A stretch of DNA of 63,290 bases, the filler included, from Clostridia bacterium (lineage in GTDB: Bacteria; CBDUZB01; JAGLHV01): the NCBI GenBank assembly GCA_030637025.1. It is 4 parts of 4 records of this genome, joined end to end, with 100 filler letters (N's around TTAATTAATTAA, not from the genome) between each part and the next. Parts side by side here need not be neighbours in the genome. Positions count along the whole stretch, not along the records: positions 1 to 27,063 come from DAOVVV010000034.1; 3 more parts are not named here. One strand, written 5' to 3'. Position 1 is the first letter of the stretch, and each line of letters opens with the position of its first letter. Shown piece by piece: positions 3,543 to 51,859 of the stretch. The translations under genes and the position numbers were made by a program. The notes under the pieces are model-generated. The model was not told where the DNA came from. It saw nothing but the letters and a program-made list of their open reading frames with translations, and made no database searches.

Positions 3543-6500
3543 ATGTCTTTGATTCAAGGTGCGGACGGAAAATATAGATCGTGGATTAAAATAGTGGCAG
3601 GGTTAACTTTGAGTTTTTTTATTGCTACTTTTTTACCAAATTATGCGTATGCTCAGGTGTCAATGTTGCCGCAGGCTATACCTTCGGATATGGCTTTGAA
3701 AGAGGTAATGATTAATCCTGAAAAATTAAAAGTTCCTACCAGTTTTGGTAAAATTGTAGATACTCATTGCGGGAAAGGCGATAAATTACTTATTTATATT
3801 CAGGATTTACATACTAATTATGAAGTGCAAACCAATATTTATAGTATTCTGGAAAATTTAACCGAAACTTACGATTTAAAGATAGTCGCCACAGAAGGAA
3901 CACAGGGAGAAATTGATACCTCCCTGCTTTCTACCTTTCCTTTGAAGAAAGTGAAAAAAGAAGTGGTGGAATTTTTTATGAGGAGGGGAGAAATAACCGG
4001 GCCGGAGTGTCTTTCTATAATGGGTCAAAAACCCCCTATTTTGTATGGTGTGGAAAAAAAGGAGTTATATCTTAAAAACTTAGGTTTGTATAAAAGTTCC
4101 CTGGATAGTAGAAAAAAATTGAGGGAATCATTAATTTCATTAGATAAAATAATTAAAGTTCTCCAGCAACAAATTTATTCTCCTGAAATTTTAAGATTAG
4201 TGGAAAAGGTTTCTTTGTATCAGAAAAACGAAATTTCTGTGGTTGATTTTGTTGGTTATTTGCAGGAAAGAGCTAAAGATACCAAGATAAATATAGAAAA
4301 AAGATTTAAAAATTTAGCGATATTAATAAAATTAATCCATTTAAGACAAAAATTAAATTCCGGTAAGAGCTTACAAATAGAAACAATGGCCATAGTATCA
4401 AGACTTTATGCAGTGATGAACGTTACGGAAATAAGAGGGTTGACCCGCAGAAGCCAGGAAAGCAAGGATTTAGAAAGTTATTATTTGTATTTAGAGAACT
4501 TAGCTAAGAAATATAAAGTTGATTTAAAATATTATTTTCCTTATTTAGCCAGTTATTTTGAATATATGGAACTTTCTCGCGGATTGAATAGTGTGAAGTT
4601 AGTAGAGGAGCAAATAAAATTAGTAGATGAATTGATTAATTTCTGGTGCAGGAATAAAGAAGAGAGAGAAATTATTCATTTGAGTAAAGTAATTGAAACA
4701 ATGAAGAAATTCATTGATATAAAGATGACCGGATGGGATATTGAATATTATCTAAAAAATAAGAAATTTTTTGACCGGGATAGAATTATAAATTTCTTAA
4801 AGAAAGAAATAAGAAAATATAAAAAGGAACCTTCTTCTGATATGCCTCCCGATGCTCTTCCTATGATTCTTGGCCGCTATGATTTGAATGAATTAGATGA
4901 TATACCGGATTTTAAAGAAGTCCTTACTACCAGTGAAGAATATTATGCTACCGCAGTTGGTAGAAATAAGTTCCTCCTGGAAAATAGTTTAAAAAAGATG
5001 GAGGCAGAAGAAAATTCCGTAATTGCTCTGGTTACCGGAGGTTTTCATACCCCGGGAATAACCAAACTGGCTAAAGAAAAAGGCCTTTCTTATGTGGTTG
5101 TTTCTCCGAATGTTACTCAGGCAGTAGATAGTAAGAGATATTTTGCTCTTTTAGAAGGGAAGGAAACCCCGTATAAAGATTTATTACTGGAACAAAGTGA
5201 ACTTTTACTTGCTCTTGCTTCCAAATTTATCGGTAAGGAATTTACCAGAAAGATAGCTTTTCTGATTACTAATTCCTTGATTAAAATGTATAAAAATAAA
5301 GATTGGTCAATGGAGGATATAAAAACTGAAATTGAAAATGTTTTTAACCGGACAAATGTGGAAAATGTGGAAAATTCTAAATTTCAGTTTCAGTGGGTAG
5401 AGGAATTAACCCAAAAAGATACAACCAGGGAAGTATATTCATTTAAGGTATTTGAAAATGACACCATAAAAAATGAGGGGATAAAAAGTATTTTGGCAAG
5501 CCGTATAATTATAGAAGGGGAAAAGAGATGGGAGACTAACTTTATAGATTCAAAAGAAGCTGAGGGGAATTTATCTGAAATAAAAATGGAAAAGATAAGA
5601 ATACAGAATTCCCTTAGAGGCCAGTTAGGTTTGTGGATTAGTGGTTCAATTAATTTCTTGAAAAGGGGCATGCAGATGCAATATTTTATGCATCTGGCAG
5701 GAAGAGTACAGGAAAGGGTTAAACAACAAATTATCGCCCAGGGAACCCTGGTTAACCTGGTTAAAAATACCTCCGCTTTACTTTTTTCTGCCTCGGCAGA
5801 TGTTGTTCTGGTAAAAGAAGAAATGATTGCTGAAGTACCTGGAGTGGAAGAAAAAGTGGGTGAGGTAAAAGTAGTGGAAGCGGAAGTTCCTGATGTAGAA
5901 GTGGCTGAAGTGCCGGATGTAAAAGTAGTAGAAGTTCCTGAAGTGGCAGAGAAAGTAGATGAAGTGGTGGAAGTAGTACCGCTGATTATACCTGTTATGA
6001 CTACCAGAGAATTGGGTAATGTTTCTTCTTTATATCAGGTAAAAGACCTTTATCAACAGCCCCTGCAGGATTTTCATGTTCCACCTTCTACCATTTCTGA
6101 GCAGGAGATGAGAGTAGAGGCAGAACAGGGTAAAATACTTATTCAACAGGGGAAATTTAATATTCTTAAACGTATTTCTCAGGCAAGAGGAATGAGGCTG
6201 GAAGGATATATTGAAGAATACGCCGTGGGAAAAATAAAGGGACGGCAAAATATGGCTAAAATACTTTCCGGAGTAATAATTAATCTGTTTCAATCTCTGG
6301 AAAATAAACTTAGTTCATCTAAAAAGGAATACTGGGATATTTTAGAAAAAATCAGTCAGGGGGAAATGGATTTTAATTCGGAGGAATTTTGGAATTTTAT
6401 GGCGGGAAATGACAACAGTGCGGAAATTTGGAAACTTATGCGTAGCGAAATAGCTAAGGCTTATGGTGCGGAAATATGGGCTAAAGAAAAAAATATTTCG

Positions 6501-9500
6501 ATAGAACAAGCAGAGCAGGAGATTTTAAAAGAAGTATTAAGCCCGATGGTGGATGGATTAACTGAGGAAATTAAAGCTGATTTAAGGCAGACAGGAGGAG
6601 AATTTACCGATAGTATTTTATATAAAGCACAGCTTAATCTTGATTTTGCTTATATGATTGATAATGCTGCTTTTGCCAAGGGTTTATATGAGGTGCAGGA
6701 TTTAGCGGCTGCTTATATGGCTAAAGATGGCGGTAGCTTTGTGGAAGTGCGTACGGGTGGAGGTAAGACCCTGATTGGTATGTTACCGGCTTATTTGATA
6801 GCCCTTAAAGGGGAAACTTGTCTTTTTATAACTAGAGATGCTACTCTGGTAAATCAATTTATAAAAGATAACCAAAATATTGCAGCTATTTTAGGGGTTG
6901 ATATGGAAGGATTCCTGAGGGAAGGTTCTGAAAATGTCAAAAAAGCGGATACCCCGGAAATTCAGCGTGAAATATTGAATGTTACTCCGGAAAATCAGGC
7001 AATAAGGAGAGGAAAGATTGTAGTTACTACTAGCCCTGATGTAGCTTTTACCGTGGGTTCGGATATGAAACTGAGTGAAAATGAAAAGGTTTTTCCCAAA
7101 GAATTTATATTTAATTTAATTTTTGATGAAGTAGATATGTCCGCAGCAACCCAGGCTACTATGGCTTATGTAGAAGCTTTGATGGCTGAGCCCCTCAACA
7201 AAGGGGAATTAAAAAGAGGTGTTTTTGCCGATTGGCTGGCTGTAGAATTAATCGGAGAAGGCGTAGATGAAATTCATAAAGCAGTAATAAAAGCTTATGA
7301 AAAAGGAGAAGAGCGTGAATTTTTGACTAAAGGAGGATTGGTACGAATTAATCTAACTGCGGGCAGAAAGGGCAGTCTAACGATAGCTCCGGAGGCAGAA
7401 TCTGTAATTAAGCAGTGTTATGATACGGCCCAGGAACAGGGATTAAGTTTAGGTAAATATAAAAAGTTCAGACAGATGGTAGAAGATCAGCTTACTGCTC
7501 AACTTTTACGAAAGAGTGATGAACAGTATGCATTTGAGAAAGTGGACGGTCAAATAGAAAGCAAATGTATTGAACCGGCTACAGGTGCCCGGACTAATCA
7601 ACGGGAACAAAGGATTCAGACTGCTATAGAAATTAAAGAATATAGAGCGGGAAATTTTAAGGGACAGGTCCTGGGAGAATCTCAGACCAATAATAGCCTT
7701 ACCATTCATTCTCTTATTGCTTTGGCTGTTAAATCGGGTGGTTTGGTGACGGGAATGAGCGGAACTTTCGGTAAGACAGTAACGGATGAGTTAGCTAAAA
7801 TAACAGGGAAAAAACTTTCACAGATCGGAATAGAGGTTCCTAGTCATTATGAAAGTGTGGTTGTAGACGAGGGTTTTATTTCCGGGGATACGGATTCTTC
7901 TACTATGGAAAGTATTATTAATTGGATTACTATGATAAAGAATGACAGAAAAGGGGCACCGATGTTGATGGCTTTAAATTCGGACAATACTACCCAGTGG
8001 ATAATAGAACAGATTAAAGAAGCGGTTAGTCTGGAGAAGTTTGCTTACAAAAATATTAAAGTGATTGGAGCAGAAACTGTTGTGGAGAAAATGGAAGAAC
8101 TGGAGCAGAACCGTTCTTCAGACACCTTGTTTGTTTATACGGTTACTGCTGCGACTACTGATTCCCAGATAGAACATATTCGTAAATATGGCGGACAGCC
8201 GGATACTTTACTTATCGGAGGAAAGACTATCGGGCGGGGTTTTGATGCTGGTTTTAAGACCATTAATGTTGAAGAAATCGGTCAACAGATAAAAACGATG
8301 TTGTTCGAAGCAGGAATATTCGAAGCAGAAATAGCGGAGGAAAAAGCAGCGGGTATTATTTTATTAATGGAAGAAATGCTCAATGATTTAAGAGCTGAGC
8401 GAAATATGGATATACGAAAAGAAAAAATTGAAAATATTAAAACATATTTTGATACAGTGCGTAATTTGTTAAAAGAAGGGGGAGTTAGCCTGGAGGTATT
8501 AGCTGAGTTTGAAACAATGGAACGACGGATATTTGCCCGGGAAGTATATGGTTTTCAGGGAGTTAATCAGTGTGATGATCTAACTTCTGGAGAAAGACGT
8601 CAAAGACAAGGACGGGTTGGCCGTCAAAGTGAGGCCGGTTCGACATGCGAATTAGTTTGTTATCAAAAAGGAGAAAGTAAATTTGGTGATATGATAGATT
8701 TTGAACGGGGGATAGAAGCTCCGTTGGGTGGAGTAATGGAAATGGGTAACGTCTTTAAATCTTTGTTAGCCGGAAAAATTAGTTTAAAAGAAACGTTTAT
8801 TCAGTTTGCACAAACTTCGTTTGTAGATAAATTGAAAGGATTTATATTGGGTGAAAATTCCGCTGAAGCGGCTTTTCGCAGGATGAATAGTTTAATAAAA
8901 GAATACAAACAACTTATTCAAGATCAAGGGAAAATAATAGAAAAAATTAAAGTCTCAGTCGGAGAGCAGGAAAAATCAGAATTAGAGCAACAATTAAAGG
9001 ACGTAAATGGAAAGATGGCAGGGATTAATAAGAAAGCAATTGCCCTTAAAATATATGCAGTAGATAGATTAGAAAGAAGTGATTCCCACTACCGTTTAGC
9101 TACCAGAAAGCGTAGTCTTTTTGCTACCCGGGTTTATGAAAAAATAGAAAAGTCCCGTAAGAATATTCTTAAAGCGGAAGTTACTAAATTAAACATTATT
9201 CAGCGTATTATTCAGGGTTTAAGGATAAGACAATTTTTTAGCCAGGAAGCTTTAGTCAGATTATTTATTAAAGATGAAATTAAGGATTACCGCAAAATGG
9301 CTAAAGAGATAGAAGATCCGGTTAAACGCAGTGAAATTTATCAACAGATGATTAGCCGTTTGGAAAAAGGATTAAATATAAAAGAAGGTGAACTTGCTGC
9401 GGAGTTGACTGAGGAAGCGTTGTTGTTTAAAAAATTAAAGACGAAAAAACTGGTAAATATGATTACGGAAAAGCTTATTGAGCAGAGGGGAGAGGAAAAT

Positions 9501-12500
9501 ATTTTTTATGTCGATGAACAAACCAATACCGGTGTTCTGGATGATGCTTTTAATTCGGTTAAAGCCCAGTATATCAGCTATGCGGAAAGCCAGCAGCACA
9601 AGAATATGGCTGTTCCTCTGCTTGCGGAGTTAATTAAAGTACAAATTTATAAAATAATACTCACTTATCGTTATCAAAGGGATATGCGCAGGATTGTTTC
9701 CCGGATGAGCCAGACAATGAGAGAGGGATTGGATAAAACCATAGAGACGGAAAGTTTGGGTAAAAAAAATATGGAAGTAGATGTAAATGCAGTTATTAGG
9801 AATGTTTCCGCAGGGATGACCGATGCTTTGAAAATAAGTGAATTAATGGCCGGTAAAGAAGAACGCAGTTTAAAAACACGGGTAGGAAAGGGTTTAGATA
9901 ACGCGGCTAAATTGTTTGCTGATTTTATGTGGCGAGCCCGGGGAAGATTATTAGGTGAAATTAAAGAACGGGTAGTTACCGTAGCGGAAAAGCGTGAAAT
10001 GGCGGCAGGTATACCCATGGTAATGGGACAGGCAGGTAAATCCCATACCGGAATAAAGGTTGCTGATTATAGAAAGGTGAATACTGACCAGATAGAGCGA
10101 GAAAAAGAATGGATGGAAAATAATCAAGTAACCCTGGATTTACAAGCTGGCTTAAAAGCAGAGGGATTTTTTGTGACTATGCCGGAAGAAAAAGTAGCAG
10201 AGGTAGCAGAAGAAAAACCAGTGGAAGTAGAAAAACCCGCAGAGGTAGTTACAGAAGTTCCTGGTGAGGGTCCTGAGATTCCCGAGGAAATCGTTCCTTT
10301 TGATACTAAAATAATTGCTCATTTTCAGGGGGAGACTGACCAAATAAATAAAGATTTGAATAATATTCAAACAGCTATTGAGGGGTTAGATATAGAGTTA
10401 GAAACAGAGGAAGTTAATAAAGTTTATCAGCAATTAAGTGAAATTCGGACAAAGATTTCCAGCTTAAGGCGCGAATATAAAACTATGGAAGTACCGGAAG
10501 ATTTAAGCAAAGATATTCAGTCATCATTAGAAAAAATAGGGACGGTTATCAGTACTCTGGATAATCAGGCAATTAAATTAAATAATGAATTGGATGATAA
10601 AACCGGAGCCCACATAGTTCCTTCCCGTTTTGATGTAAAGAATATTATTAGAAAAATTGACGGGAGGGTTTTAACTTTTACTCAAAATCTTGCTTCAAGC
10701 AAATTAGGCAAACCGGTTTTTGGACTTTCTTTAGGGGTGGTATTTGCCGGGTTTCTTTTTATTCTTTTTAATGGTTTATCTTTTGGTATGTTGCCTATTT
10801 TAGCTTTAGTTTTTACTCCGCTAACTATTTTATTTTCTTTCTTTAAAAAGGAGTCGGGAACTACTTTTCCTGCCCAGCCTAAAAAAGGAGCATTGGGTAA
10901 ATTAATGAATATTAGTGAAAAAGTTAAAGAGGTTATTGGCGGTACTCCCGGAAAGCCGGCTTCATGGACTAACCTTTTTATTTCAGGAATAACTTTAATT
11001 GCTTTCGGAATTAGTTTAGGTTTTGGCCCGGCTGTTCTTTTAACTGCAGGAACAGCTGTTTCTGCCGGAGTAAGTATGATGGGTTTTGGGTTCAGTCCTA
11101 TAATCTTCATTTTTATAACCAATGCTATATTACAGAAAACCAAATTTCTGGATAAGCTTGCCGATAAAATAAGCGGCCTGTTAGGTATTCGTAAAGCAAA
11201 AATAGAAAACAAAAAAGGCTTTGAAAATCTGAGATTACGGATGGAAGAAAATATTCGCCAAAACAAGGAAAATGTTCCTTTACCAATAGAACAGTTAGAA
11301 AAACAGGCAAGGATTATTGCTTTTGGGGGGGAGGAAATAGCGGAGGAAAAATTAACCCCGGCAATGAAGGAACAGTACCGGAATGTTCTCAAAGGTTTGG
11401 AAACATATTGGCGCAGTGTGGAAAGAGAGCTTTTGAAAGAAGCAATTAGTCAAAGTGAAAAAGATATTTCTCATGCGGCTGAGGTAAATAAAGCGGTAAA
11501 CGATGAGGCAATTGCCGCTTTTTGTGGTTTGAGAGTGAATTTCCAAAGAATTAAAGAAAAAAAGACATTACGACCCGATAATGAAAAATTAGAAGAGTTC
11601 GCTGTACAAATAGCTGCAGCTGAATTGGAAAAAGATGTTTCAGTAGGGGTGGTAAATGCCCGAGTTGAGGAGGTTCTGCCATATTTAAAAGAATATTGGT
11701 TTGAGGCTGAAGAGGAGGTCTTAACCGGGAAAATTGCTCAGGCTAAAGCAGATTTGGGTAATATAGTAAAAATAGCCGGAGAAGAGCAATTGGAATTAAT
11801 TGCTTCCAACGCTGTTCAACGTGCCCGGGCAGGGGAAAATGCACAAGCTTTAGAGTTATTGCAACAACGATTTGAAGAAAACAGAAAAATTTCTCAGCTT
11901 ACTCCCCAAAAATTAGCAAAAAGGCAAAAAACAATATGGGCAAACGTTGCCCTTAAATTGGGGTATCAACCGGGAGAAGAACTTTATCTCCAAATAAATA
12001 AGGCTTTACAACAATACTGGGTAAGTATAGAAGGGGAATTATTGCAATCAGCCATTAAACAAAGCCAGGAAGATATTACCCGTGCTTCTGCATTAAACAA
12101 AGCAGTAAATGATGTGGCTATTGCTGCTGTTTGCGGATTAGAAACCAGTCTGGAAAGAAGCCGGCAGAAAGAAACCTTACCTTCTGCGGAACAATTACAA
12201 AAACTAGCCGTAGATATAGTTAATGTTGAACTTAAGGAAGATGTTTCAGCTCAGGAAAGAAATGCCCGAATAGTAGAAGTGGTTCAATATTTAAAAATGT
12301 ACTGGTTTGATGCTCAACAAAAGCTTTTATCCAAAAGAATTGCTCTGGCAAGGGGGGATCTGGATAATATTGTAGACATAGCTAAAGCCCCTCAGGAAGA
12401 GTTAATTGCTCAATATGCCAGTCAGCTGGCACAGGCAAAAGAAGGGGTTGCCTTAAAAGAAAAAATAAAAAGATTAGCTACTTATATTGAACAGGAATTA

Positions 12501-15500
12501 GCTGAGTGGTCCATTCAAACAGAACTAGAGTTTATTTCAAAATCACAGGAAGATTTAATTGCTTTAGTAAACAAAGCAGAATATTTAACCGATAAAACAA
12601 AAGAAAATCATATTAACCAAATTAATCAAAAAGTTGCTCAGTTAGAGCAAGCAAGAACAGTACAACCGGAGGAAACGGTAGAGGAAGTAGTAACACCAGC
12701 GGAAGTAGATGTGAAAAAGAAAGTAACTATTGCACAGATTATAGGGGATGTTTTTGATGGGGCTTTGCGTCCATTCAATGCTTTGCATTGGGAAATAGAA
12801 GAGGGGGTAGTAGATGCGATTATTGCCGGACTGGGGTTAAAGCAAAAGGAGGTTAGCTTAACGGCAAAGCAAAGAGAAAAGGTAGTTAATGCCCTGGAAT
12901 TATTAAAAAGAGAATTTCCGGAATTGGAAAATAAAGAATTATCCGGTGCTATACAAAAAGAATTGGATGGGTTAATTAATAATCCGGAAGAGTTGAAAGT
13001 AGTCGAAGGTAAGTGGTTTATTATGGATGAGTCTAATACGCTTAAAGCCTGGGTAGGGGCATTTTTAAATGGACCGTATGTATTTATTTTAAAGGCCATG
13101 ATTAAAGGAGCGACAGAAAAACAATTAGCCGGGGCTATCTTACATGAGTTGTTGGAAGTGCAGGGAATAGAGCATGAGCCGGCAAAAAAAATTGTAGATA
13201 GGTTTATAGTCGGTGAGGAAGCTATTGAAGAACGGATGGAAAAGATTGCAATACTGGAGGCGGCAGGTTTTAAAACAACTAATCAAGAGATATTAAAATT
13301 AAGTATAAAGGAAATAAAGGAAAGAATTGCTCTTTTAAATGAATTAAAAGAATCAGGAGTAAAAGTATCGATTGGTTGGTTAACATATGCGCCGGTTACA
13401 TTGAAAGAGTGGGTAGAAGCGTTGGTGGAAATGGGTATTACTTATGCTCAGATTACTTCGAAGTTAATTATTATTCAGAGTTATATCCAGCGGCTGGCTG
13501 AAGGAGAAGATGTTGGGGAAGAACTAAATAATAAAATTGTCCGGTTAAGTGAACAGCCGGAAAATGAACAGATAGTAAATAAGTTGAAGGGAAGAGTTCA
13601 GCAGCTAATTCCTGAAGCAGTGGAAAAAGTCGAAGATGATATTGAAGAGATAAAAAATAAGATAAAAAGTTTGCCGGACGAAGAAAAACATTATATCCCA
13701 ATAACAATATCAGACACGAAAGATGTTAAATTTCTTTTAACCCGGGAAGATTATGCGGCGGGGATGAAAGTAAGTGAAGGGGGCATGCTTAGTTTATTAA
13801 GTAAAGCATTAAGCCTGGAGAAAGAATTATATTTTGGTATATATTATGAGCCATTAAATGAAGAAATTGTATTATCACTTCTTGACCAACCCCACTATTT
13901 CTCCGAGGAGCATGGGAAGAATGGTTTTATCGGAATAAACAAATCCATAGTTGAAATCAAAGATGAAAAAATACGCAATATAGTTTTGATAGTAGCTTTA
14001 ATGCACGAGTTAAGGTATGAAGTAACCGGGCGGGATGACGATGCTTTTGAGCAGGAACAATTAGCCTGGGACATTCAATTGACCCTTTCTTTATTAAATG
14101 AAGAAGGAATTTTATTAGATGATTATATTAAGACACTGGGATTATTAGATAAAGAAACTCCGTATTTAAGAGGACTGCAACAATTTCCTTATAAATATTT
14201 TGTAGAAGTATTATCAAGGACATTTGAAAGAGATGAAACTATTATCGGACAAATATTTGATAATTTTTCCGGGGATATTAATTTTGAAAAATTAACGGAA
14301 AATATTTTTAAAATGATTAAGGAATTAGAAACATTAACCGATATTGAAAAAACTGATCTTGATAAATATGAAAAATTCTCCCGGCTTTCTCTGGAAATGT
14401 TGGTAGCCATTGTACCGGCTTTGAAAGAAAACTGTCAACAACTGGATAGAGTAATAAAAGGAAAAGTAAAACCGGCAAAGGTAGATATTATTGAATTAGT
14501 TGATTCAGTAATAGAGGCAAATAAAATAAGTAATGTTAATGTATTATTACCTGAGGGGGATAATTTACCCCAAATAGAGGGATTTAGTGATTACATAGAA
14601 CAAACATTAGTTGAATTAATAACTAATGCTAATGAACATGGGGCAAGAAATATCGAGGTAACTATTTTAAAAGCCATACATCCCCAGACTAGAGAAGAAG
14701 GGATCCAAATTAAAATAAAAGATGATGGGAGGGGGATTAATTCTGAAGATCAAAAAAATATATTTAACAAGGGATTCAGGGGTGATGTAGAAGTTGGGGA
14801 AGGAAAGAAAATTACGGGTACAGGGTTAGGTTTGCATTATGCTAAAAGATTTATAGAAGAGTTATACCGGGGGGATATTAGGGTCAGTAGTGAAGGCAGG
14901 GATATTAATAAATGGGAAGCAGGGAAGGGAAATGGAAGTACCTTTAATTTGACTTTATTTGATATCGACAAGGAACGGGATTATCAAGAATATCGCTATG
15001 AGCTTGTTGTTTCTATAATTCATAATATAGGTAACAATCTCACCGTTTTAAAAGAATCTGCTGCAATGTTATATGAAAGTAAAGAAGATGATAAATTGTT
15101 TTTAGGGATAAAAAACAAGGTGGAAGACATTATTACCTACATAAAAATATTTATGGTAATGAGAGATCAAACTACTTTAAAAACGAGGCTTGAAGAAACA
15201 TGGAAAGAAGAACCGGTAACGGAAAAAAGATTTCCATTTATAGCTTTAACCTCTTTCTTAGTAAGTATATTTAGTGTGTTTGGACTTGTTGGTATAGCTA
15301 TGGCAGAATCGGGAGTTGTAACAAATGTTGTTTCCGGAATATCTTTATTAGGGATAAGTGTACCGGGGATAGTAATTGGAGGTATAGGTATAGCTCTGGG
15401 TGTATTAGGGTTGAGATGGATACTAAAAAGGATAAAGGAAAGAGCGGATAAAGAAAGAATAAAAATAGAAGCACCCCCGGTCATTGAAAAGCTCAGTAAC

Positions 15501-18500
15501 GAAGAAGCAGGAGCAATAGTTAATAATGCGGCTATTCTAAGTAATAAGGAAAGAGCTTATAATGAGGATATAGATGTTTTGCCTGTAAAAGTTAGGCCAA
15601 AAGAAATGAGAGAATTATTAAAGAGTGAAGTATTTCGGCCAAAATATCAATATAAAATTGGCAAATATACGATTTATTTATCCAATTCTTATAAGAGTGA
15701 TAAAATTACCGACCGGGAGTCAGTTGTAGCATATATTAAAAGTCCGGACGGTAAAATTGTAATAAGGTCTTTTTACTGCTCTTTATCTTTAGGATTGTGG
15801 CATAGTGCCAGTCATTTTGGGCAGCCCGGAAGCCCTTTATGGATTGGAAAAGGTATGACAGCTTTTAAATTTTCTACTCAGTTACCAATACAGATGCAAA
15901 AGGTGCTTTTTGATATTCGTTCTCAAGTTGGGTTTGCTCAAGAAGTCAGCGGAGAGGAAGCAAAGAAAGTTTTTTACGGTGCGTTACAATATTTAATTCC
16001 TACAGAATACGAAAAAGAATTGGAAGGAATTTCTGAAGGAATTAGAGACATGATCAGAGATGTGCCTGAAAGTAGAAAAGTATTGGATTCTCAAAAAGGA
16101 ATGCACATAAAACCGGAAGATTTAAAGATTAAAAGTAAAAAACTTAGACCGGATTTCAGTAAATTAATAACCAGATTTGAAGTCAGGTTAAATCCGGAAC
16201 TTTATAAAGAGGGAATAGGTGAAGCCTATGTTTTTTATTCTAACGATAAAAAATTACAGTATCTGTTTTTAAGGGATACTTCCGGGAATGTGTGGTTGGG
16301 AACGATTGATTTTATAGAGGAGGATATTAACAATTTTGGGATAAGAAGGGTTATGTATAATCCTCTTGATTTAAGTAAACCGCCGTACGAATATTATGAC
16401 AATATTCCGGAGGGATATATAGGAGAACGGAAATCTGGAAGTTATTATGAGGTTATAAATTATCATCGTAACGTTTCGATTTTAAATGAAGCGAAGAAAG
16501 TGATAGAAGAGAGAAGTAAAGAAAGAACATGGGATGAATGGAAGAATATTTTCCGGGGAGAGGGTGTTGAAATTATACAAATGGAACCTGTTAGTGTTGA
16601 TGGTTCTGAAGTTTTAACAGAGGGAGATGCCCGGAGAAGACTGGCAACATATACTTTGGAAATAGATGCAGATAAAATCACCGCAATCGAAAAAATATTT
16701 GAAGAAATCGCAGTAATTGAAAAATACATTTCAGAAATTAAACAAAAGAACGTGAAGGAAATAGCAGCAGATTATAAGTCGTGGAATATAGATAAATTAG
16801 AAAATAAATTAAATGAAATTTTAAAAACGGGTAAACTGGATGATAAAGATTTAGACAAAAAAGTATTAGAAGAAGTTAAAGTAAATATAGATAAAATTAA
16901 ACAAATTAAAAATAGCATTAACCATGAATTAAATGTTAATCGGATTAAAACAATTGAGCAAGAAATAGAAAAAATCAGTAAACAAATTAGTGAAGAAATC
17001 AGTAAAGAATCGGAGTTTGTTTATTTAATGGATGTTAATGCTTTTAATAAATTCAACGAAACACTGGAAACAATCGATAGTAAAAGGCTGGAACTTATAA
17101 ATGTTAAAAAGCCCTTATTAGAAGAAAGTAGCATTCAGCAATTAAGGGAGTTTAGAAATCGCGTTAGGGATGAAAAAAGGTTGATAAAACAAAGCCTTGA
17201 CCTTTCTGTTGATGAACGGCAAATATTTATTGGCTGGTACTTATTTAATGAATATTATGAATTATATAAGGAAGACGATAAGCATGAGCAATTAATGCAA
17301 AATGTTAAGTTTGTTGAAAGATTAATTGCCTTAAATAAAGAAAATGATATTCCGGCAAAAGAAAAAGAATTATTTGCTTTGATTAGTGAGTTAAGAGCCA
17401 GAGGTATAAATGAGGAAATTTATAAGCAGGTGCAGAAAGTTAGAGCAAGGCATATAGAGCAAAAACAATCAGTTCAGGATTCTTTAAATATCATGATCAA
17501 TCAAATGAATGTAATAAGCGGTCAGCCGGAAGAATTATTACGGGATTTAAAAAGTAAGGAATCTACGGTAAAAGTTTTAGAGGAAAAAGCATTAGTTGAA
17601 TTTAAAAGTGATTCGGAAAAATTTGCTTTGTTTAGTAAAAAGAAAACTATTTCGAAAGTTGGAAAAGATGATTACTTTCAGCAACACCTGGCCACACATG
17701 CTAAACATTTTTTCGGAGAGGCAGAGCCGCTTAATGCAAGGCAATATAGAGAACTTATTGAGCAAATAAAACAAAAAGCGGATATGTGGTTTATCTCTTT
17801 TGATGAAAATGGAGTAAAAAGATATAACTATTATGAACAGGGACATAATGTTTTATTAATAATAACAGAATACAGAGACTCAAATCCATTATTTATAAGT
17901 TGTTATCCGGTTACTTCCGATAGAGTGGGAGAGCTTTTAAAGAGAGAAAAAACCTATGTTGTATCTGATTTGAGGGAAGAAAAAGAACCGGTAAAGGGGA
18001 AAAGATTTTCTACTACAGTCTTAATTTTTTTATTAGTAAGCATAGTCAGTTTTTTTGGACTTGGTGGTATAGCCATTGCAGAATCGGAAGGTTTAACAGG
18101 TGTTGTTTCCGGAATATCTTTATTAGGGGCAAGTTTACCCTGGATAGGAATTGGATTATTAGGTATAGGGATGGATGTATTGGGGTTGATATGGATGCGA
18201 GAAAGGATAAAGGCTCTACCTACATTTTTGACTCCAAAAATAATTGCTGGGTTCGGAGGAGGTATTGGGAGGATTGAGAAAAAATTAATAAGGGTTTCTA
18301 TTGCTATGAATACAAGGTCAGAAGATGAAGAGAGTGAAAATAAAATAATTAGTGGAATGTATAAAAATTTGAAGAAAATTCAGACTCAAATTTCCGCACT
18401 TAACCGTAAATATCAGGCTGTAGAAATTCCCGCGGGTGTGAGTGAAGAACTTAAGGAGGCATTTAAAGATATTGGAGTTAGATTAACTAATGTCAATAAT

Positions 18501-21500
18501 CAGGCAATTGACTTAAATAGGCAGCTTGATGAAAGAAGAGGACCTATAGAAGTTAAGCCCCCGGTCGAAAAAGAAGTGAAAGTCAAGCCGGAAGTTGTTA
18601 CTACCGAGATAAAAGATTTGGTGAAAAAATTTTATGTAACAGGTTTACTTTTGGGAATATATATTCTTGGTTCCTTCATATTACTTCCCGGATTTAATAG
18701 CGCAGTTCCGGAGCAAATGAATTTGTTTTCTTTTTTCTTTAAAATATCTTTAGAAATGTTAACCGAGCAAGGGGATGTTGTCGGATTAATATCTCTTTTT
18801 TCCGGTGGAAGTATGGCTTCTATTTTTGCTATGGGTCTGTTGCCGTATTTTCTTGCTTCCACGGCAATTCAATTAGGAAGCTTTGTTTTTCCGGGAATAA
18901 AGAGAAGGATAAGCCAGGGAGATGCGGGAAAAGAACGACTGGAAAAATATACCCGATATTTAGCTTTAGGGATAGCAGTTTTTCAGGCGATAATAATGGT
19001 GAATTACTTAATGCCTTTTATGGTAGGTGCGGCATTAATACTTAAATTATCTACGGCTGTATCTTTAATTGTCGGGACTGCTTTTATTATGGGGATAAGC
19101 GAGCAAATAGGAAAAAGAGGCCTGGTTAAAAGAGGCAGTTTACTGGTAATAAGTGTAGGGATGTTAACCAGTATGGTATTTACTTTATTTAGCGGTCCTA
19201 TAGCAATGGCTGCGATATTTTTCGTAGCAATTGCCGTTCCTTTAGCTATAGTTATTCATAAGGTGCATTATAAAATTCCGGTCAGATTTGCTCCGCTTGC
19301 CCGTAAGGAAGCGAAAGAGAAGATGGGGTTTTTGCCTTTAAAGCTGGATACTGCCGGGGTAAGTGCGATTATTATTACTATGTCTTTTCTGATGGTAGGA
19401 TCGATGATTTCTACTGTTTTTATGGGGGCAGGGGCTATTACTATTGGGCCGAATTTAATGACCGCTATTACAGGGATAATGATATTTTTCTTTTCTTATG
19501 TAGGTACGACCAGGGTACAGATGAATGTAAAAGATCTGGTCAAGGATTTTTTACGGGGAGGAAAAATCATTCCCGGTGTTGCCCCTGGTGTGCAAACAGG
19601 GGAATACATAAAAAAGACAATAAATAGAGTGGGGTTTTTAGGTGCTTTATTGGTTACTGCCATTACTATTGCCCCAGCGGCGTTAGGGATTGGGACTTAT
19701 GCTTTAGGAATGACTATTTTAATTTCCACTCTGGTTTTCTTAGAAATTTTCAATCAGATAAGGGTTGCCTGGTCCAGTTTAAAAGTAGCTACACCCGAAG
19801 TGGTTGAAGCAGAAGAAACAGCGGAGAGGAAAAGCATCAAGTATTTAGTTGTGGCAGCAAGTGGATTATTGGGGCTGGTTAGTTTATTTTATTTAGCTTT
19901 ACCCTCTTTAGTAGACATACTTACCATGGAAATTACTTCCACACTTTTTCTGGTAGTAGGAACGGCTGTTTTGATGGGCGTGTTGTTTTTTAATTTAACT
20001 TCTTTCGGCCAACAGATTTTAAAAAACAGAGCCAGGAAAATATCTATACTCAGAGAGAAAGCAGACATAATAGATGTATTAAGGGAGAAGTATGCCGGAA
20101 AGAGCAATGAGCAATTATTGGCAGAAGCTGAGCGGTTAAGAGGGTTATTTACTCCTGAAATGACCGATGAAGAGGCGGTCAAAATACTGGAATCAATGGA
20201 CGAAGACGGTATACCGATTAAGCTGAAGGGTATTGCCTTAGCTATGACTAATATTGAACGAACTTCCCGGGAAAGTGCAGTGGAATCAGCTATTGAATGG
20301 TTAGAAAAAGATACAGAGTCGATGACGGATAAAGCAATAAAATTAGCCATTAAGCAGGCGAAGGGAAATAATGGGGAAGCATCCCAAAAAGTAGTAGATT
20401 TAGTTTTGTTTAAAATAAATAAAAAATTAGAGCAAAAGATAAGTGTACATGAAAGATTGAAATTAGAAGAAGAAATAGGAAAGATTGAGAGGAAATGGAA
20501 TTTCACTTTTAATCCCAATCAGGTATTTACTGCCCTGGCTTTGTTAGAGCGGGAAATTAAAGAAAAAACATTACTTGGTGATTGGTCAGGGAGGATACAG
20601 GGGTGGATTACTCCCAGCGACTTAATGCAGAAAATAGTAGGCAATTATGTTCAGCTACCCGGGGGAGAAGGGAAAACCCAGGTAGCTGCGAGTGCTTTAT
20701 TTACAGCATCTTTAGCCGGCCGGGGCAGTCAGTTATTAACATCGCATAAAAATCTGGCTAAGTCGCAAGGGAAAGAGATGGCTATGTGTTTAGCGCGTTT
20801 AGGGACCAGTGTGAGTGTTGTAGGAGCCGAGTATGATGAGCAGGGAAGGCAGGTGCATTATGTATATAAACTGAAAGAATTGGGTAAAGATAAGGTTAAG
20901 GTTGAATTGGTTAAAACTACTGATGTGGAAGTAGCTTATAATGAATGTGATATTACTTATAGTGATGAAGCTACGGCTAATCATCTAAGGCAGATGCACT
21001 TTTTAAATTTGCGTCCTTCTTTTTACGCTGCTTACGATGAAGGAGATGCGATTTTTAAAACTACTTCTCCCAGGAAAATATCCGCAGGAGCAGAAGGGGA
21101 AACATGGAGTAATGAGAATATAATTGCTTTAAGAAAACTCTTTTTAGAAGATGGATTAAGGGAAGGTGATTTTAAATTGGATTTCCGGGGGGATGGAAGG
21201 ATCAGGCTTACCGGAAATGGACAGGCTCAATTAAAGAGAATAATTAAAAATGAACAGCAAGCGGAAAAAATTATTAACTATTTCAGAGAAAATGGTTTAC
21301 CGGAAAAATTTGTTTTTGGGATGCTGGTAAAAAGGTTAAAACAAGCTCAGGAACGGAGAGAAGGGGAATATTTTAAGGTAAATTATGAGGAAAAAGAAGA
21401 AGTAGTAGAATTAACCTCTGCCGGCAGGGAGATAATCGAACGGAATTATTTAGGGCTTCCTTTAGATTTATCACTTACCCAGTTGGATATAATTCATTCC

Positions 21501-24500
21501 CATTGTTTACACGCGGCAATGCAGGCGGAATTTTTCTTCAGGCGTCACAGTAAAGAAGCAGTGGAAGAAGCAAAAAAGCAGGCTGAAGAAATAGGTGCCC
21601 CTCAGGTTCAGCAGTTAAAGTGGTATGACCTGGCATGGGTAAAGGATGCACAGGGGAATGATATTGTAGCCTTAGGCCCGATTAATCCGCTTAGCGGAGC
21701 ATGGGAAAGAACGCAAGTAGCAGGAGGCATTCATCAGGCGATGGAAATTGCCGTAGTATTAGATAGAGTAGAAAGGGAAGAAGTGGTTGCTAAATTTAAA
21801 TTAACCGATGAGGGAGATACCTTCAGTCAATGGACTATTCAGCAATATACTCAACAGCATTTCTGGATGGGGGCTTTATCTGCTACCGGGACAGAAGATA
21901 GAGGGTTTGAGAAAGAATTAAAGAGAGATTATGGCCTGGCTATGGTAGATATTCCCCAGGATAAAGCAGTGAGTTTAAATAGGGATAAATATGAAAATGG
22001 TTATTTTATGAAAATAAAAGACCAGATTAGTTATATTAGTGGGCTTATTGGGGAACATTGTAATATAGGCGGGATATTTGTAGTTGCTTATACCGAGGAA
22101 AAAATGATGCAGATTTTTGCGGAAGTTAAACATTCCCTGGAGAAAAAGGCTGAATGTGCCACTATTGAACCTCCGGATGTATCTCTTAGTCCGGATGAGT
22201 TTGATAAAGAGCTTATAGCTAAAATTTCCCGGGCACAGAAAGTAGAACCAGGTAAACTTACTTTATGTAAGTTAGCCAGTGGAACTACTGATGAACAGAT
22301 AGATGCTATTGCCGAGATAGGTAAATTACCCGGGGTAATAATATTTACAACTGCACGCGGTTCCAGGGGATTTAGTGTAATGGGTAAGAAAATGTTGATG
22401 ATTGAAGCGGAACTGGCACAAAGTCCGGCTGATACTATTCAGTCTTTTCGCCGGGTAGCCAGGCAGGGAGAAGAAGGTTTTGGGGTACAGGTGTTTAGTT
22501 TTGAGGATTCCGGATTATTTACCAAATATGCAAAAGGATTTGTAAAGAAGTATTTAACAAAAGGAAAAGAAGGGAACTTATTTGGAACGACCCTGGGGAC
22601 GTTATTAGAGAATATGATTAGAAAAGAAATACAGCTTACTATTGGGCTTAAACAATTATCGGAAAGAATGTTTTTTACCAAATATTATAAGACTACCCAT
22701 AAAAACAATTTAAAAGTTTATCAGTGGCAGGAAAAGATTGGGGATGCCTCTGACAGACAGATAAACAGATATGTAGAGAGATTAATTGAAATGCAGATAA
22801 GTAGTTTAAGTGGTAAGTATGCATCTTCCAAGGGAATAAAAGAAGTATTAAATGAAATAATAGCAAGGAGCGTAGAGGAATACACCTTGACCCAAAACCC
22901 CGAATTTTGGAAATTGGAGAAATTAGAAAGAGGTTTAATTAATTTATTTCCTCAGGAAAAAGATGAATTAAATGAAGTTTTCGCAGAGATAAAAATGGTG
23001 GTGGAAAGTCGTAAAGGTCCTCTGGATAATCGCGCTTTGTTTGCTTTAAGAAAAAAGGTAATTAAAAAATTGGAAGGATTTGTTGCTCAATTGGATGATG
23101 AGGTTTTAATAGAAAGAGGGCGGTATTTATTAACGAGGCAATTAATTGGTTTGGGGTTACCTCCAAAAGAAGTAGAAAAAATAGTTTCTTCGGAAGATTA
23201 TCGGGAAATGGTTGAAGGAACCGGTGACAGGTTAAGTAATAATTTATTGTTTTTAGTTAAGGACGGATATAAGGCAGGGATTGAGGTAGGGGATTTTTCT
23301 GTAGAACAAATAAAGCAGATGTTGGTTAATGTAATTAGTAAAGAGAGAATAAATTATTTAACTACAGTTGATGTGGCAATGCAAAAAGTACAATTGCTTG
23401 CTTATGCAGGAGAAGAACCTTTAGGGGAATTTAATTTTGAAGTCAACAAAAATTTTCAGGAATATACTCAGAAGGTAGTAAGAAGGGTTTTTAAAACGGT
23501 TTTTATCAACAGGATGAGAAAAGAGGAGAAACCTATTTCTTTTGCTCAGGGGATTAAAAGAATAGAAAAATTACCCACATTAAAAAGAGTTATTTTTATA
23601 GAAGGGGCTGCTCAAATCCGGGATTGTTATCAATATCGTCTCCACGGTGTGGCCGGGGAAAAATTTTTATATGAATCCCTGGAGGATTTAGGGATTAAGG
23701 AATTAAAGGAAATTTTTGCCGTACCGGAAAAAATAAAAGAAGAAATCGTAGCTGAGGGGATAGAACAAACAATTTATTCAATGCCGGAAAGAGTTATTTC
23801 CCAGGAAGTAAATTTAGATGTTGATAGAAACAAAGATATAAGGGATGCTTTAGCCAGGAGAATAACTCCTTTATCCGGGCAGTTCACAGCAGAGAATATC
23901 GGTGCGGTGGAAATAGCCGGTTTTGGAAAAACTACCAGTCCGTTGACAATAGTAAGAGTGAATAACCCTGAAAAAATTGATTCTACTGTATTGCAATGGG
24001 TGGAAGAAAGATTAGCTTTGATAAATTCAAACAGCAAATTGGTATTTGTTTATGCCGGAAGTAAAGAATCATTGAGAATGAAGAAAGGGGTTACGGCAAA
24101 AGTTTATTCTCTGGTAAAGAAAGAAAATAGAAAGCTGAAGGTGAAAGAATCAGTACCCATGTATTTTTATGATGTATTTAATGAGAAAATATCCGATGAA
24201 ATGCCGCGATTGGGAATTGTTTCCGTAATACTGTGGTCAGTCGGCCGGTGGATTTCAGGGATTTCTATTCGTTCTCCGGGAATGGCTTTAAGACGTATCT
24301 TTAGTGAATTGGGACTGGAAAATTTACGGGAAGCAGGAATTATCCGCACAGTCTATAGTTTCTTTTCTCTTTTTGCTTTAGCCGGCGGGCTTATGGTTGG
24401 ATTGGCTCAGAGTGTAGCGGCAAGTGATGAGGTAGCAGTTCCGGTAACGGAAGAAGAAGTAATAGAAGAAGTTCCCGGAATAGAAATAGCAGAAATAGAG

Positions 24501-27063
24501 GAAGAAGAAATAATTACACCTGAACCTACGGAAGAGCCCACAGAAATACCTGCGGAAGAGCCGACAGAAATACCTACAGAAGAGCCGACGGAAATACCCA
24601 CAGAAGAGCCGACAGAAATACCTACAGAAGAGCCGACGGAAATACCGACGGAAGAACCGACAGAAATACCTATGGAAGAACCTACGCCAGAGGTAACGCC
24701 CACACCCGAACCCACAGAAATACCCACAGAAGAGCCTATAGTAGGAGAATTACCGGAAGAAGAAGAGATGATGTTTTTGCTTACCACCGAACAGCTGGAA
24801 GGTTTGGGGTTTGATTTATCAGCGGTGAGGTCTTTTGAAAAAATAGATGACAATGTTAAACTTATCTATTTCGATGATAGTGAAGCAGTATATAATTTAG
24901 ATTATAAATTAATATCTTTAATAGATGAAGAAGGAAATGTTTGTGAAGTCATTCCTACCGAAGATAATGAAGTTGTTAATATTAAAATACCTGCTAAAAA
25001 TTGGGTTTTAACCTATGATACCAAGGGAGCAAAAATAACTGCTGTTTATGATGAATCTATAAACCAATTTATTGATTTAACAGTTGTTTCGGAATCTACT
25101 CTTAGCGGACTTACTTCCGGCATAAAAATTCTTGATGCTGTAGGAGATATAAAAGCAAATGATCCGTACGAAGGAGATTTGTTGAATAAAGCCCGAGACT
25201 ATTTTAATGCAGGGGAGTATGATAATGCTATAAGTTCTTGTGAAGAATTTATAGAGGTTTTTGAAGAAGATGCTATGCTGAAGCGTGATCAACTGGAAAT
25301 TTTAGGTGGAATGGATGACGCAGTAAATGGTGTTGAATGGGGGAAGATATTTGAAGAGTATGGAACATTAATAAATATGATAGAGATATATGACATTATG
25401 ATTAAGAGTTGTGAACTAAACCATGAAGATAGTAAAGCCGAAGACTATGGTAATGAATTGAAAAAAAATTATCCGGATTATATAGATTTACGGACAGATC
25501 AGGTATTGCTTATTGGGGCAAGGGTAAATTTTAATGAGGAAAATAACGAAATATCAATTCTATATGCAAACAAGTTGTATAATATTTTTGGGCAGATAAA
25601 AGGAATACAGTCTGCAGTCTCAGCTATAGCCGAAGTATCCATTTATATGGTGGTTTTAAATCCTGATGGCGTCCCGGGAGATGATGGTAAGACCTGGGAA
25701 GAAATTTATGAAGAATATCATCTTTTTACCAGGGATCAGGTATTAACCAGTGCAGTAAGAGAGAATTGGAAAACCAATCCTGTGTATGCAAAGGAATGTG
25801 CTGAAGAGTTGTACGAAATTTTTTATAATTTAGATATAGGAAAACCTTTTGATGTCATAGAGGCAGTAAAGGGACATAGATGGGGTGGTGTATTAGCCGG
25901 ACATGCTTCGGCGATGAATATAGCAGAAGTAAGTATCTATCTGAATATGGATGAAATGAAAGAAGTTTTGAGCGAGGGTGAGAAGGAAAAATGGAAAAAT
26001 ATATATAAAAACTATTCAGATTGTCCAATGGAGCAGGTATTAGCTTTCGGGGTGAGGGAAAATCACAAGGATAATCCTGACTATGCAAAGGAATATGCTA
26101 CTAATTTATATAGATGGCATTCAACAATAGATGCAGGGAAACCGGTATGGAGTAGTTATGAAGAGGTAGAGGAAGCGGTTAGAGGGAGAGAATGGATAAA
26201 AATTTTAGCTGAACATTCAGCGGCGTTAAATATAGCCGAAGTAAGTATTTATATGAAAAAAATAGATCCTAATGGTGTGCCTGTAGAAGGAGGAAAAACA
26301 TGGGAAGGGATATATGAAGAATATAAGTGGCATGATATGGGACAGGTGTTAGCTATCGGAATAAGAGAGAATTATTATAGTGGAAATTATGAATATATGC
26401 AGGGATATGCAGAAGGGTTATACAGTATTTATCATGATTCCGATATAGGTAAAAGCTTTGATGTAGGAAATGCAGTGAAAGGTAAAGAGTGGAAAGATGT
26501 GTTAGCTGAACGTGCTATAGCGATGAGTATAGCAGAAGCAAGCATTTATATGAATAAAGAGGAAGTGAAAGAAGTATTAGATGGAGAGGATATAGAACTA
26601 TGGGAAAACATATATATAGAATATAGCAGTTGTACTACGGATCAAGTATTGGTAGCCGGGGTAAGGGAAAATTATAAAGAAAATTCGGGATTAGCCGATG
26701 GATATAGGGCGGAATTTAAGAAAATGTTTGTAGATGCAGCCGAGGGGGAAGAAAAAGGGATAGTAGAACAACAGTGGGAAGCGTTACAGGAGGAATTAGA
26801 CAAGGATAAACCGTTTGAGGGTATGGGTGTAGGTACGGCGATGGGTAATTATGGAATAGTATTAAGCTGGAATGAGATAGGAGCGATATACGGAGATACG
26901 GAGGTAACCAATAAATATACTTACGGTACGGCCCAGCTGTTGGTGGCCGGGGTAAAGGCTAATTATGCGGATAACAAAGGTTTAGCACTCGGATATAAAG
27001 ATATGTTTAAAGTGTTGTTTGTAGATAGCGGTATAGTGGATGAGCAATTGGAAAGACTTAAAA
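3543..27063 (+). CDS. Giant multidomain membrane protein (at least 7,840 aa, 3'-truncated) with two SecA-like ATPase domains and a SecY-like channel
   Basis: Uninterrupted frame from ATG 3543 (SD gggagg) to the N gap. The apparent stop at 27119 is in the artificial spacer. Signal peptide ends PNYAYA. Domain evidence is in the entries below. Confidence 0.95.
3740..5170 (+). other. Giant-protein N-terminal domain, TraB/TIKI (EreA/ChaN-like) fold candidate with helical insertion
   Basis: Motifs IQDLH, ATEG, GRNKFL and ALVTGGFHTPGI occur in the order typical of this superfamily. Confidence 0.5.
6660..9720 (+). other. SecA-like ATPase domain 1 within giant ORF
   Basis: LYEVQ...EVRTGGGKTLIGMLPAYLIALKG (Walker A), IFDEVD (7125-7136), EPATGA...IQTAIEIKE, GMSGT, GRGFD and QRQGRVGRQ (8601-8627), all in SecA order. 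Confidence 0.88.
11406..12390 (+). repeat. Tandem duplication of about 203 aa (609-nt period) within giant ORF
   Basis: YWRSVERELLKEAISQSEKDI..NKAVNDEAIAAFCGL..YLKEYWF vs YWVSIEGELLQSAIKQSQEDI..NKAVNDVAIAAVCGL..YLKMYWF (starts 11406 and 12015). Confidence 0.9.
14470..14960 (+). other. Histidine-kinase-type ATPase (HATPase_c) domain within giant ORF
   Basis: N box ELITNANEHG, G1 IKDDGRGI, F box IFNKGF, G2 GTGLGL, G3 GSTFNLTL. Confidence 0.9.
15207..15437 (+). repeat. Internal signal-peptide-like/TM hairpin repeat, copy 1
   Basis: KRFPFIALTSFLVSIFSVFGLVGIAMA-ES...VVSGISLLG...GVLGLRWILKRIK. Shares an exact 27-nt stretch gttgtttccggaatatctttattaggg with copy 2. Confidence 0.85.
17982..18212 (+). 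repeat. Internal signal-peptide-like/TM hairpin repeat, copy 2
   Basis: KRFSTTVLIFLLVSIVSFFGLGGIAIA-ES...VVSGISLLG...DVLGLIWMRERIK. Confidence 0.85.
18624..19763 (+). other. SecY-like translocon channel domain within giant ORF
   Basis: Ten hydrophobic segments and SecY signatures in order: GSFILLPG, LFSGG, SIFAMGLLPY, GKERLEKYTRYL, GTAFIMGISEQIGKRG, LPLKLDTAGV, IIPGVAPGVQTGEYI, GMTILI. Confidence 0.92.
20010..23520 (+). other. SecA-like ATPase domain 2 within giant ORF
   Basis: SecA N-terminal helix (KYAGKSNEQLLAEAERLR), QLPGGEGKT (20661-20678), YDEGD (21036-21047), NPLSG...GGIHQAMEI, SATGT, GSRGFSV, QSFRRVARQGEEG, SFED and the C-terminal LLAYAGEEPLGEF (cf. LRGYAQKDPKQEY). Confidence 0.88.
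24516..24737 (+). repeat. 24-nt tandem repeat encoding EEPTEIPT linker
   Basis: About 8 imperfect copies of gaagagcc(g/c)ac(a/g)gaaatacc(t/c)ac(a/g), a Pro/Thr/Glu spacer. Confidence 0.95.
25497..27063 (+). repeat. About 100-aa helical repeats at the visible C-terminal end of giant ORF
   Basis: Anchor (D/E)QVL..GVREN at 25497, 25734, 26031, 26340, 26640 and 26931; most units also contain NIAEVSIYM-like and AVKG.EW motifs. Confidence 0.85.
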
Positions 27064-27163
27064 NNNNNNNNNNNNNNNNNNNNNNNNNNNNNNNNNNNNN
27101 NNNNNNNTTAATTAATTAANNNNNNNNNNNNNNNNNNNNNNNNNNNNNNNNNNNNNNNNNNNN
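27064..27163. other. Artificial contig spacer
   Basis: N-run, TTAATTAATTAA (stops in all six frames), N-run; 100 nt. Confidence 0.97.
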
Positions 27164-51012: not shown

Positions 51013-51079
51013 ATAAGAGTAAAAGGCAAAAAATAATTCCCTGATTTTTATTATCACTTAAAAAGGAAAAACAAACAAA

Positions 51080-51853: not shown

Positions 51854-51859
51854 TATAAA

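Follow-up and report, generated by a model that had tools for sequence, protein, structure and literature searches.

Signal-peptide-like hairpin repeats within a giant SecY- and SecA-like bacterial protein: probable duplicated membrane anchors around a cytoplasmic module

The 63,290-nucleotide (nt) stretch of Clostridia bacterium DNA analyzed here (assembly GCA_030637025.1), referred to below as the window, contains a giant open reading frame (ORF) (3543..27119; 7,858 amino acids [aa]) that carries, deep within the encoded protein, two direct repeats resembling signal peptides: R1 (15205..15438; aa 3888-3965) and R2 (17980..18213; aa 4813-4890). The ORF and all of its features described below are on the + strand. 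The locus raises the question of whether these repeats mark sites at which a bacterial polyprotein is processed into separately anchored subunits and also bracket a cassette that can be gained, lost or swapped, as the initial annotation proposed, or whether they anchor an uncut protein in the membrane. We assign a probability of roughly 0.55 to the reading that R1 and R2 arose by recent duplication of a hairpin anchor and flank a cytoplasmic module that was either inserted or duplicated along with it.

A repeat search of the window recovered R1 and R2 as a two-copy direct repeat of 234 nt (80% identity, no gaps), and the translated regions share 53% identity over 95 aa (BLASTP, E 8e-25); this confirms the two copies of ~77 aa, similar also at the DNA level and with the motifs as described, that had been recognized initially. 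Using either copy as a tblastn query, R1 and R2 were the only copies in the whole window. Their starts are 2775 nt (925 codons) apart, and the copies are therefore in frame and in register. The boundaries of the repeat are sharp: nucleotide identity is 0.17-0.30 in the three windows of 30 nt preceding 15210 and rises to 0.73-0.93 between that point and 15419. Both copies have the same order of motifs: KRF, a 25-residue uncharged stretch leading to IAMA or IAIA, ES, VVSGISLLG (encoded by the longest exact run shared by the two copies, 28 nt at 15326-15353), a Gly-rich second helix, and RIK. Helix 1 of R1 (15231..15305; aa 3897-3921) comprises 25 uncharged residues after KR and ends in AMA followed by ES, a putative -3/-1 site; helix 2 (15345..15413; aa 3935-3957) is Gly-rich (GIVIGGIGIALGVLG). 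Helix 1 of R2 (18006..18080; aa 4822-4846) ends in AIA, likewise followed by ES, and helix 2 (18120..18194; aa 4860-4884) contains one Asp and is less hydrophobic than its counterpart in R1. A complex prediction for R1 with R2 gave a score of 0.00; run without controls, it counts neither way.

The distribution of hydrophobicity and charge suggests how these segments would lie in the membrane. A 19-residue Kyte-Doolittle scan detected ~23 hydrophobic helices in the giant ORF, including an N-terminal helix (aa 13-32), two adjacent hairpins (aa 2388-2530), R1 (aa 3896-3962), R2 (aa 4820-4885), and a last helix (aa 6936-6961). In R1 there are four Lys/Arg residues in the 15 aa preceding the hairpin and seven in the 15 aa following it; the corresponding counts for R2 are five and four. 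The 13-residue loop between the helices has no Lys/Arg in either copy, and this also holds for the loops of both hairpins at aa 2388-2530. The last helix has two Lys/Arg residues in its N-terminal flank, and none in its C-terminal flank, where there are seven Asp/Glu residues. When each hairpin is counted as two helices, all of the ATPase domains fall on one side of the membrane, and only the C-terminal ~900 aa cross it, via aa 6936-6961. A marginal hydrophobic stretch (24201-24269; aa 6887-6909; Kyte-Doolittle 1.48, with an internal Arg) is situated 27 aa ahead of the last helix; were it to cross the membrane, the C-terminal domain would end up in the cytoplasm, but the Arg-rich loop before the last helix argues against this.

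Placement of the hairpin flanks in the cytoplasm is supported by neighboring domains that need this compartment. Just upstream of R1 is a histidine-kinase-type ATPase domain, HATPase_c (14589..14957; aa 3683-3805; Pfam, E 4e-16). Downstream of R2, Pfam identifies a SecY-like domain (PF00344; aa 5093-5402; E 1.8e-44, profile positions 1-305 of 306), which with two extra helices forms a SecY-like channel region (18627..20009; aa 5029-5489), and which is fused between R2 and the second of two SecA_DEAD-like ATPase domains (20634..21896; aa 5698-6118; Pfam). A weak match to SecA_SW, the SecA scaffold/wing domain, follows (aa 6429-6654; 23.5 bits, below the 26.7-bit cut-off). In addition, the fusion to FHA seen in 4 of 30 relatives of the first domain of the inter-repeat block (described below) was counted toward cytoplasmic placement of that block.

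R1 and R2 have diverged in an unusual manner. Forty-six of the 78 residues are identical, and the codons that differ comprise 4 synonymous and 32 non-synonymous differences; the 47-48 nucleotide differences (of 234) are spread over the three codon positions as 15/18/15. Nei-Gojobori estimates are dS 0.22, dN 0.245, and dN/dS 1.1, the ratio being noisy with only 78 codons. For the other internal repeats of the giant gene (a coil motif, a tandem pair beginning at aa 2610 and 2813, and the C-terminal repeats), the same method gives dS of 1.0-1.9 and dN/dS of 0.2-0.5. The hairpin pair is far younger than these repeats, or has been homogenized by gene conversion. We compared the pair with a null model in which 48 random changes were applied to copy 1 (20,000 simulations). 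A stop codon arises in 75.5% of simulations, and the hydrophobicity observed for helix 1 is attained in just 3.5%. There is one strongly polar residue in the two helix cores versus 4.2 ± 1.8 expected (6% of simulations at or below the observed value), and the number of identical residues (46) is close to the 47.4 expected. Based on this outcome, selection has acted on the open frame and on membrane character, and not on specific residues; the keeping of hydrophobicity without residue identity is the pattern of a generic anchor.

Thus, we favor R1 and R2 as paralogous two-helix hairpins, with both basic flanks in the cytoplasm and the loop outside, that would hold one cytoplasmic module after another of a giant multi-pass protein at the membrane. 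The predicted order of modules is HATPase, R1, the 847-aa block, R2, a juxta-membrane motif, the SecY-like channel, and the SecA-like ATPase, followed by a single exporting helix, with the acidic linker and C-terminal repeats then outside the cell. The hairpins would insert co-translationally as loops, in accordance with the positive-inside rule, and would stay uncut. Duplication of one hairpin would have given a double hairpin resembling the one at aa 2388-2530, and the 2.5-kb block would have entered the cytoplasmic loop between the copies, or would have come along with the second copy. The AxA-ES motif would have been inherited from the single ancestor and would be dispensable for anchoring.

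Several observations weigh against such an uncut anchor. R1 and R2 fit the -3/-1 rule perfectly, with Gly at -5 and Glu at +1, and helix 2 of R2 is only marginally hydrophobic, with its Asp. The clusters nearest to R1 and R2 in language-model features are the major coat proteins of filamentous phages, at 0.86-0.87 (below the 0.9 mark) with 166-174 shared features. The topology derives from Kyte-Doolittle windows and charge counts; the noise in the dN/dS ratio also has to be set against the argument from selection, and our library and genome-contig searches found no orthologue in which to compare hairpin conservation. Furthermore, the N-terminus of the giant ORF (nt 3543-3653; aa 1-37) resembles a canonical cleavable signal peptide (h-core of ~15 residues, Pro at -6, AYA-Q), and the first SecA-like module (SecA_DEAD; nt 6654-7136; aa 1038-1198) would therefore be outside the cell, which the proposed topology does not explain. 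A scan of hydrophobicity and charge found no convincing membrane helix in aa 33-2387, ATPase domain included.

The block between the repeats (15439..17979; 2541 nt, 847 aa, predicted to be cytoplasmic) matches the 2.5-kb block of the initial annotation, in which it was divided into an unknown domain, a coiled coil and a putative RNase. The first of these descriptions holds, insofar as no part of the block has a match in Pfam, NCBIfam or PHROG. The N-terminal domain (15465..16577; aa 3975-4345) belongs to a widespread uncharacterized family of ~290 aa. A HMMER library search with aa 3871-5070 as query returned 412 proteins at E <= 0.001, of which 150 reached E <= 1e-10; 149 of the 150 matches listed cover only query residues ~98-468 (aa ~3970-4338), and in the matches listed the domain is usually located at the C-terminal end of proteins of ~190-4,000 aa. 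In a Pfam scan of 30 of these proteins, the accompanying domains were FHA (four proteins), eCIS_core with DnaJ (one), an ADP-ribosyltransferase exoenzyme domain (one), and a peptidoglycan-binding domain (one); another was the window's own fragment, and 22 had no family. Since the matches are distributed across unrelated architectures, the N-terminal domain is a promiscuous module. An AlphaFold2 model of the domain from a 30-sequence alignment has pLDDT 84.5 and pTM 0.86, and Foldseek found no match to it in the PDB at E <= 0.001 (best TM-score ~0.14-0.17). The middle of the block (16578..17612; aa 4346-4690) is rich in Glu, Lys, Ile and Leu, low in Pro plus Gly (2.8%), and probably helical; the proposed coiled coil is weakly supported by a heptad score of 0.261 (0.202 ± 0.023 in 50 shuffles). 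The putative RNase fared less well. For the C-terminal domain (17613..17978; aa 4691-4812), Atlas language-model features gave leads of 0.82-0.87 to PBECR nuclease families, so that a BECR-type nuclease is a lead only; the domain has no match in Pfam, NCBIfam or PHROG profiles and none in the PDB at E <= 0.001, and a model of low confidence (pLDDT 48.7), too poor for a fold search, renders its Foldseek matches meaningless.

If recombination between R1 and R2 adds, removes or replaces the 2.5-kb block, or once did so, with the two copies serving as homology arms, a crossover would leave an intact chimeric hairpin. This proposal is mechanistically possible, and no variant supports it; we regard it as unlikely. 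In its favor, the copies are young, and with a spacing of 925 codons they keep both frame and register, so that a crossover would restore one hairpin; the promiscuity of the N-terminal domain (149 of the 150 matches listed, with partners that include FHA, eCIS_core with DnaJ, and ADP-ribosyltransferase) is also in keeping with a mobile block. However, identity between the arms is just 80%, and the 28-nt exact run is near the lower limit for RecA-type exchange. The GC content at third codon positions (GC3) of the block is 0.256, within the 0.24-0.37 of the gene's other 200-codon windows, and a foreign origin of the block by composition was rejected, this value being uninformative. There are no terminal inverted repeats, and a MITE-like element was likewise rejected (one 12-nt pair was found, probably by chance). 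Among the matches listed in the HMMER search there were none to the juxta-membrane motif, the rear of the block, or the hairpins, and P0002 was the only close record. This 1,539-aa fragment is colinear with aa 2921-4459 with two differences, and spans R1 and 494 aa of the block, such that the R1-to-block junction is identical in arrangement in the single other record available. No orthologue with or without the block was found: no homologue of aa 3850-5500 was identified among proteins of 4,321-13,752 aa, or of aa 4798-5500 among proteins of 1,232-3,515 aa, and an HMM built from R1 and R2 had no match among the fetched proteins.

Processing of the kind proposed in the initial annotation could make the hairpins internal signals of a procoat-like type, cut by signal peptidase I after AMA and AIA, with a third cut behind the VAA that ends at aa 6961. 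On this view the ORF would encode a polyprotein, its modules becoming separately anchored subunits and its C-terminal domain being released outside the cell. We consider this improbable, although the basic-hydrophobic-AxA pattern noted initially at both repeats is a fair match to the signal peptidase I layout. A charged n-region directly precedes the core (KR ahead of both hairpins, R ahead of the third helix), the residues at -3 and -1 are small and Pro is absent from +1 (AMA-E, AIA-E, VAA-S), and the hairpins have Gly at -5 and an acidic +1 residue. The ORFs of the window contain 55 uncharged hydrophobic stretches that are 18 aa or longer; the strict pattern of AxA directly before the first charge occurs in two of these, R1 and R2, and is missing from the other 53, and a loose -3/-1 rule is satisfied by 15 of the 55. 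The phage clusters closest to the hairpins in the language model (Phage_Coat_B and Phage_coatGP8 major coat proteins, 0.86-0.87) would also be compatible with processing, as would the type of linker that follows the third helix, which is seen in proteins with dockerin, PKD and FN3 domains, commonly extracellular. Cytochromes b and c1 of Bradyrhizobium arise from one precursor that is cut at an internal signal sequence; our literature search for bacterial internal signal cleavage (fbcH) found no precedent. For giant proteins, the available part of one preprint describes cleavage as an open question and states that cleavage points are not known (10.1101/2023.11.21.568195).

Comparison with the N-terminal signals in the window argues against cleavage of the hairpins. 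By eye, each of the three internal segments, in which Gly is found at -5 or -6, has its site 25 residues from the last basic residue, versus 21 residues in three N-terminal signals, those of the giant ORF, ORF 2444 and ORF 53242, whose likely sites are AYA-Q, SWA-H and VWA-G, respectively; residue -6 is Pro in the first two of these and Asn in the third. The internal cores are correspondingly longer (~19-20 residues within 25 uncharged, versus ~15 within 21). The two smaller ORFs (2444-3526 and 53242-54912) have N-terminal signal peptides and no Pfam match. Instead of being N-terminal, the internal segments begin at aa 3895, 4820 and 6935 of 7,858, so that the n-side ahead of the hairpin sites is ~3,900 residues long. 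Yeast signal peptidase cuts less well when n-regions are long and cores more hydrophobic, and the motif alone is not decisive, according to the accessible text of one study (PMC8277137); this enzyme is eukaryotic, and is therefore only an analogy for the bacterial signal peptidase. The two hairpin sites also amount to a single evolutionary event, because R1 and R2 descend from one recent duplication (dS 0.22), and there is no purifying selection on the hairpin sequence. Nor is there profile similarity to coat proteins: the hairpins are unmatched in Pfam at E up to 1, including the inovirus coat profiles PF05356 and PF19199, and have no match in PHROGs. Taken together, the circumstantial evidence leans against cleavage of the two hairpins by signal peptidase I.

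The third signal-like segment, RTVYSFFSLFALAGGLMVGLAQSVAA-SDE (nt 24345-24434; aa 6935-6964), is a stronger case. It was initially noted as preceding the acidic linker, and this is confirmed: its helix (24348..24425; aa 6936-6961), the only unpaired one, is followed by acidic Pro/Thr/Glu 12-nt tandem repeats (24482..24760) that form a linker to the C-terminal repeat domain, with a Pfam PT repeat at aa 7006-7040. This helix is the best candidate for cleavage, a prospect that we place below even but clearly above that for the hairpins, because it alone precedes an exported part. A homologue search with aa 6900-7839 gave 1,313 matches; the 120 matches listed cover 5-18% of the query, which is consistent with matching of the Pro/Thr linker only. 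Older repeats of ~100 aa are present in 25317-27059, within the C-terminal, probably external, domain.

An extension of the polyprotein proposal, which we hold to be unlikely, is that the protein exports itself: its own SecA and SecY modules would insert the hairpins, and signal peptidase I would cut at AMA-ES, AIA-ES and VAA-SD. If true, this would free a cytoplasmic module of 847 aa anchored by two helices as well as an extracellular C-terminal domain, and would identify, for the first time, definite cleavage points in giant bacterial proteins. A different role in cis, with helix 1 of the hairpins (especially that of R2) occupying or regulating the lateral gate of the protein's own channel, is suggested only by the closeness of R2 to the SecY-like domain (140 aa upstream) and by the signal-like shape of helix 1; it is very unlikely given the free drift of the sequence, which would not be expected of a specific gate ligand. 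The weakest explanation is that the second copy stems from a join that was collapsed or chimeric, in a window that has masked stretches and is probably from a metagenome assembly; such an artefact is close to negligible, as there are ~47 mismatches in 234 positions between the copies, which are still in frame, the ORF is uninterrupted, and the independent 1539-aa record is colinear from R1 into the block with two differences.

Returning to the duplicated anchor, the giant gene contains other internal repeats. A juxta-membrane motif of 73 aa downstream of R2 (18324..18542; aa 4928-5000) repeats aa 2283-2355 (nt 10389-10607) with 36% identity and dS ~1, and each copy directly precedes a cluster of membrane helices, the double hairpin in one case and the SecY-like domain in the other. 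An older tandem pair of ~158 aa (aa 2610-2767 and 2813-2969; 50% identity) is located in 11370-12449. At its 3' end, the final 19 codons of the giant ORF cross a stretch of Ns, and the stop codon is unverified. Three segments of the window (27064-27163, 54861-54960 and 59909-60008), at or near gene ends, each have two 44-nt runs of N with 12 readable bases between them; the runs in 27064-27163 cover the last codons of the giant ORF, so that its true stop cannot be checked.

The genes flanking the giant ORF are ordinary chromosomal genes, encoding aminoacyl-tRNA synthetases, RecO, PhoH and a DinB-type polymerase. No paralogy was found between the upstream 360-aa ORF and the N-terminus of the giant protein. 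At the Rfam gathering score, the sole RNA match was a tRNA (60071-60145), with no RNA element at the repeats. Elsewhere in the window, genes for a Ser/Thr kinase, a PP2C phosphatase and a protein that combines FHA with a beta-propeller are clustered at 48892-53014. In other proteins, the domain most often found alongside the N-terminal domain family of the block is likewise FHA.

The finding is sound as an observation and modest as biology. The three internal sites are short, explicit candidates with which to approach the open question of whether giant bacterial proteins operate as a single chain or are cut. If the hairpins are uncut, they represent an ordinary recent duplication of an anchor around an inserted module, which is still an example of how giant proteins grow. 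Compared with the hairpin repeats, the fused SecY-like channel may be the more interesting feature; judging from its domains, the giant protein may carry its own translocon. A search of genome contigs for related loci gave 41 loci, all of them ordinary SecY genes with 24-36% identity, the closest being mostly from Verrucomicrobiota and Planctomycetota. Among the papers listed in a literature search, none concerned a fused SecY in its title or in the opening of its abstract. In the available parts of two giant-protein preprints, SecY is mentioned once, as canonical SecYEG (10.1101/2023.11.21.568195), and is absent from the other (10.64898/2026.06.07.730766), although the supplements may hold comparable cases.

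Among known systems, the hairpins can be compared with procoats, which are hairpins cut by leader peptidase. Like the M13 gp8-type procoat (Phage_Coat_B, Phage_coatGP8), each repeat has ~75-80 residues, a basic start, a helix ending in small-x-small, a short acidic external loop, a second helix, and a basic tail, with probable insertion as a hairpin; unlike a procoat, the unit is internal to a giant protein and its helix 1 is longer. This likeness was read from the sequence layout, and is a resemblance of architecture, not of descent. With type I signal peptides, R1 and R2 share the n-/h-/c-region layout and Ala at -3 and -1, but they are internal, and their site lies 25 rather than 21 residues after the last basic residue. 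Among membrane polyproteins, those of viruses and the cytochrome b/c1 precursor of Bradyrhizobium are cut at internal signal sequences, on the outer side of the membrane, by the signal peptidase of the host. In those systems cleavage is documented, and the part downstream of the cut is translocated; here, by contrast, each hairpin is predicted to have both of its flanks in the cytoplasm, which leaves the third helix as the only one ahead of an exported part.

The closest comparison for the ORF as a whole is with giant bacterial proteins. According to the accessible part of one preprint, these have many interspersed membrane helices and divergent SecA DEAD domains (10.1101/2023.11.21.568195). 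A survey, also available in part, describes transmembrane-only architectures and architectures that combine a signal peptide with transmembrane helices, lists HATPase_c as a frequent domain, and, regarding internal signal-peptide calls as artefacts of chunking, downgraded them (10.64898/2026.06.07.730766). Like the giant SecA_DEAD proteins, mainly from Omnitrophota, as far as these are described there (10.1101/2023.11.21.568195), the present protein is encoded by a long ORF and has an N-terminal signal-like segment and HATPase_c; two SecA_DEAD matches and ~23 hydrophobic helices also occur in its single ORF. With its 7,858 aa, it falls far short of the 30,000 aa highlighted for the giants in that preprint, and, set against the giant SecA_DEAD proteins as described, it holds a full SecY-like domain together with the weak SecA_SW match (23.5 bits).

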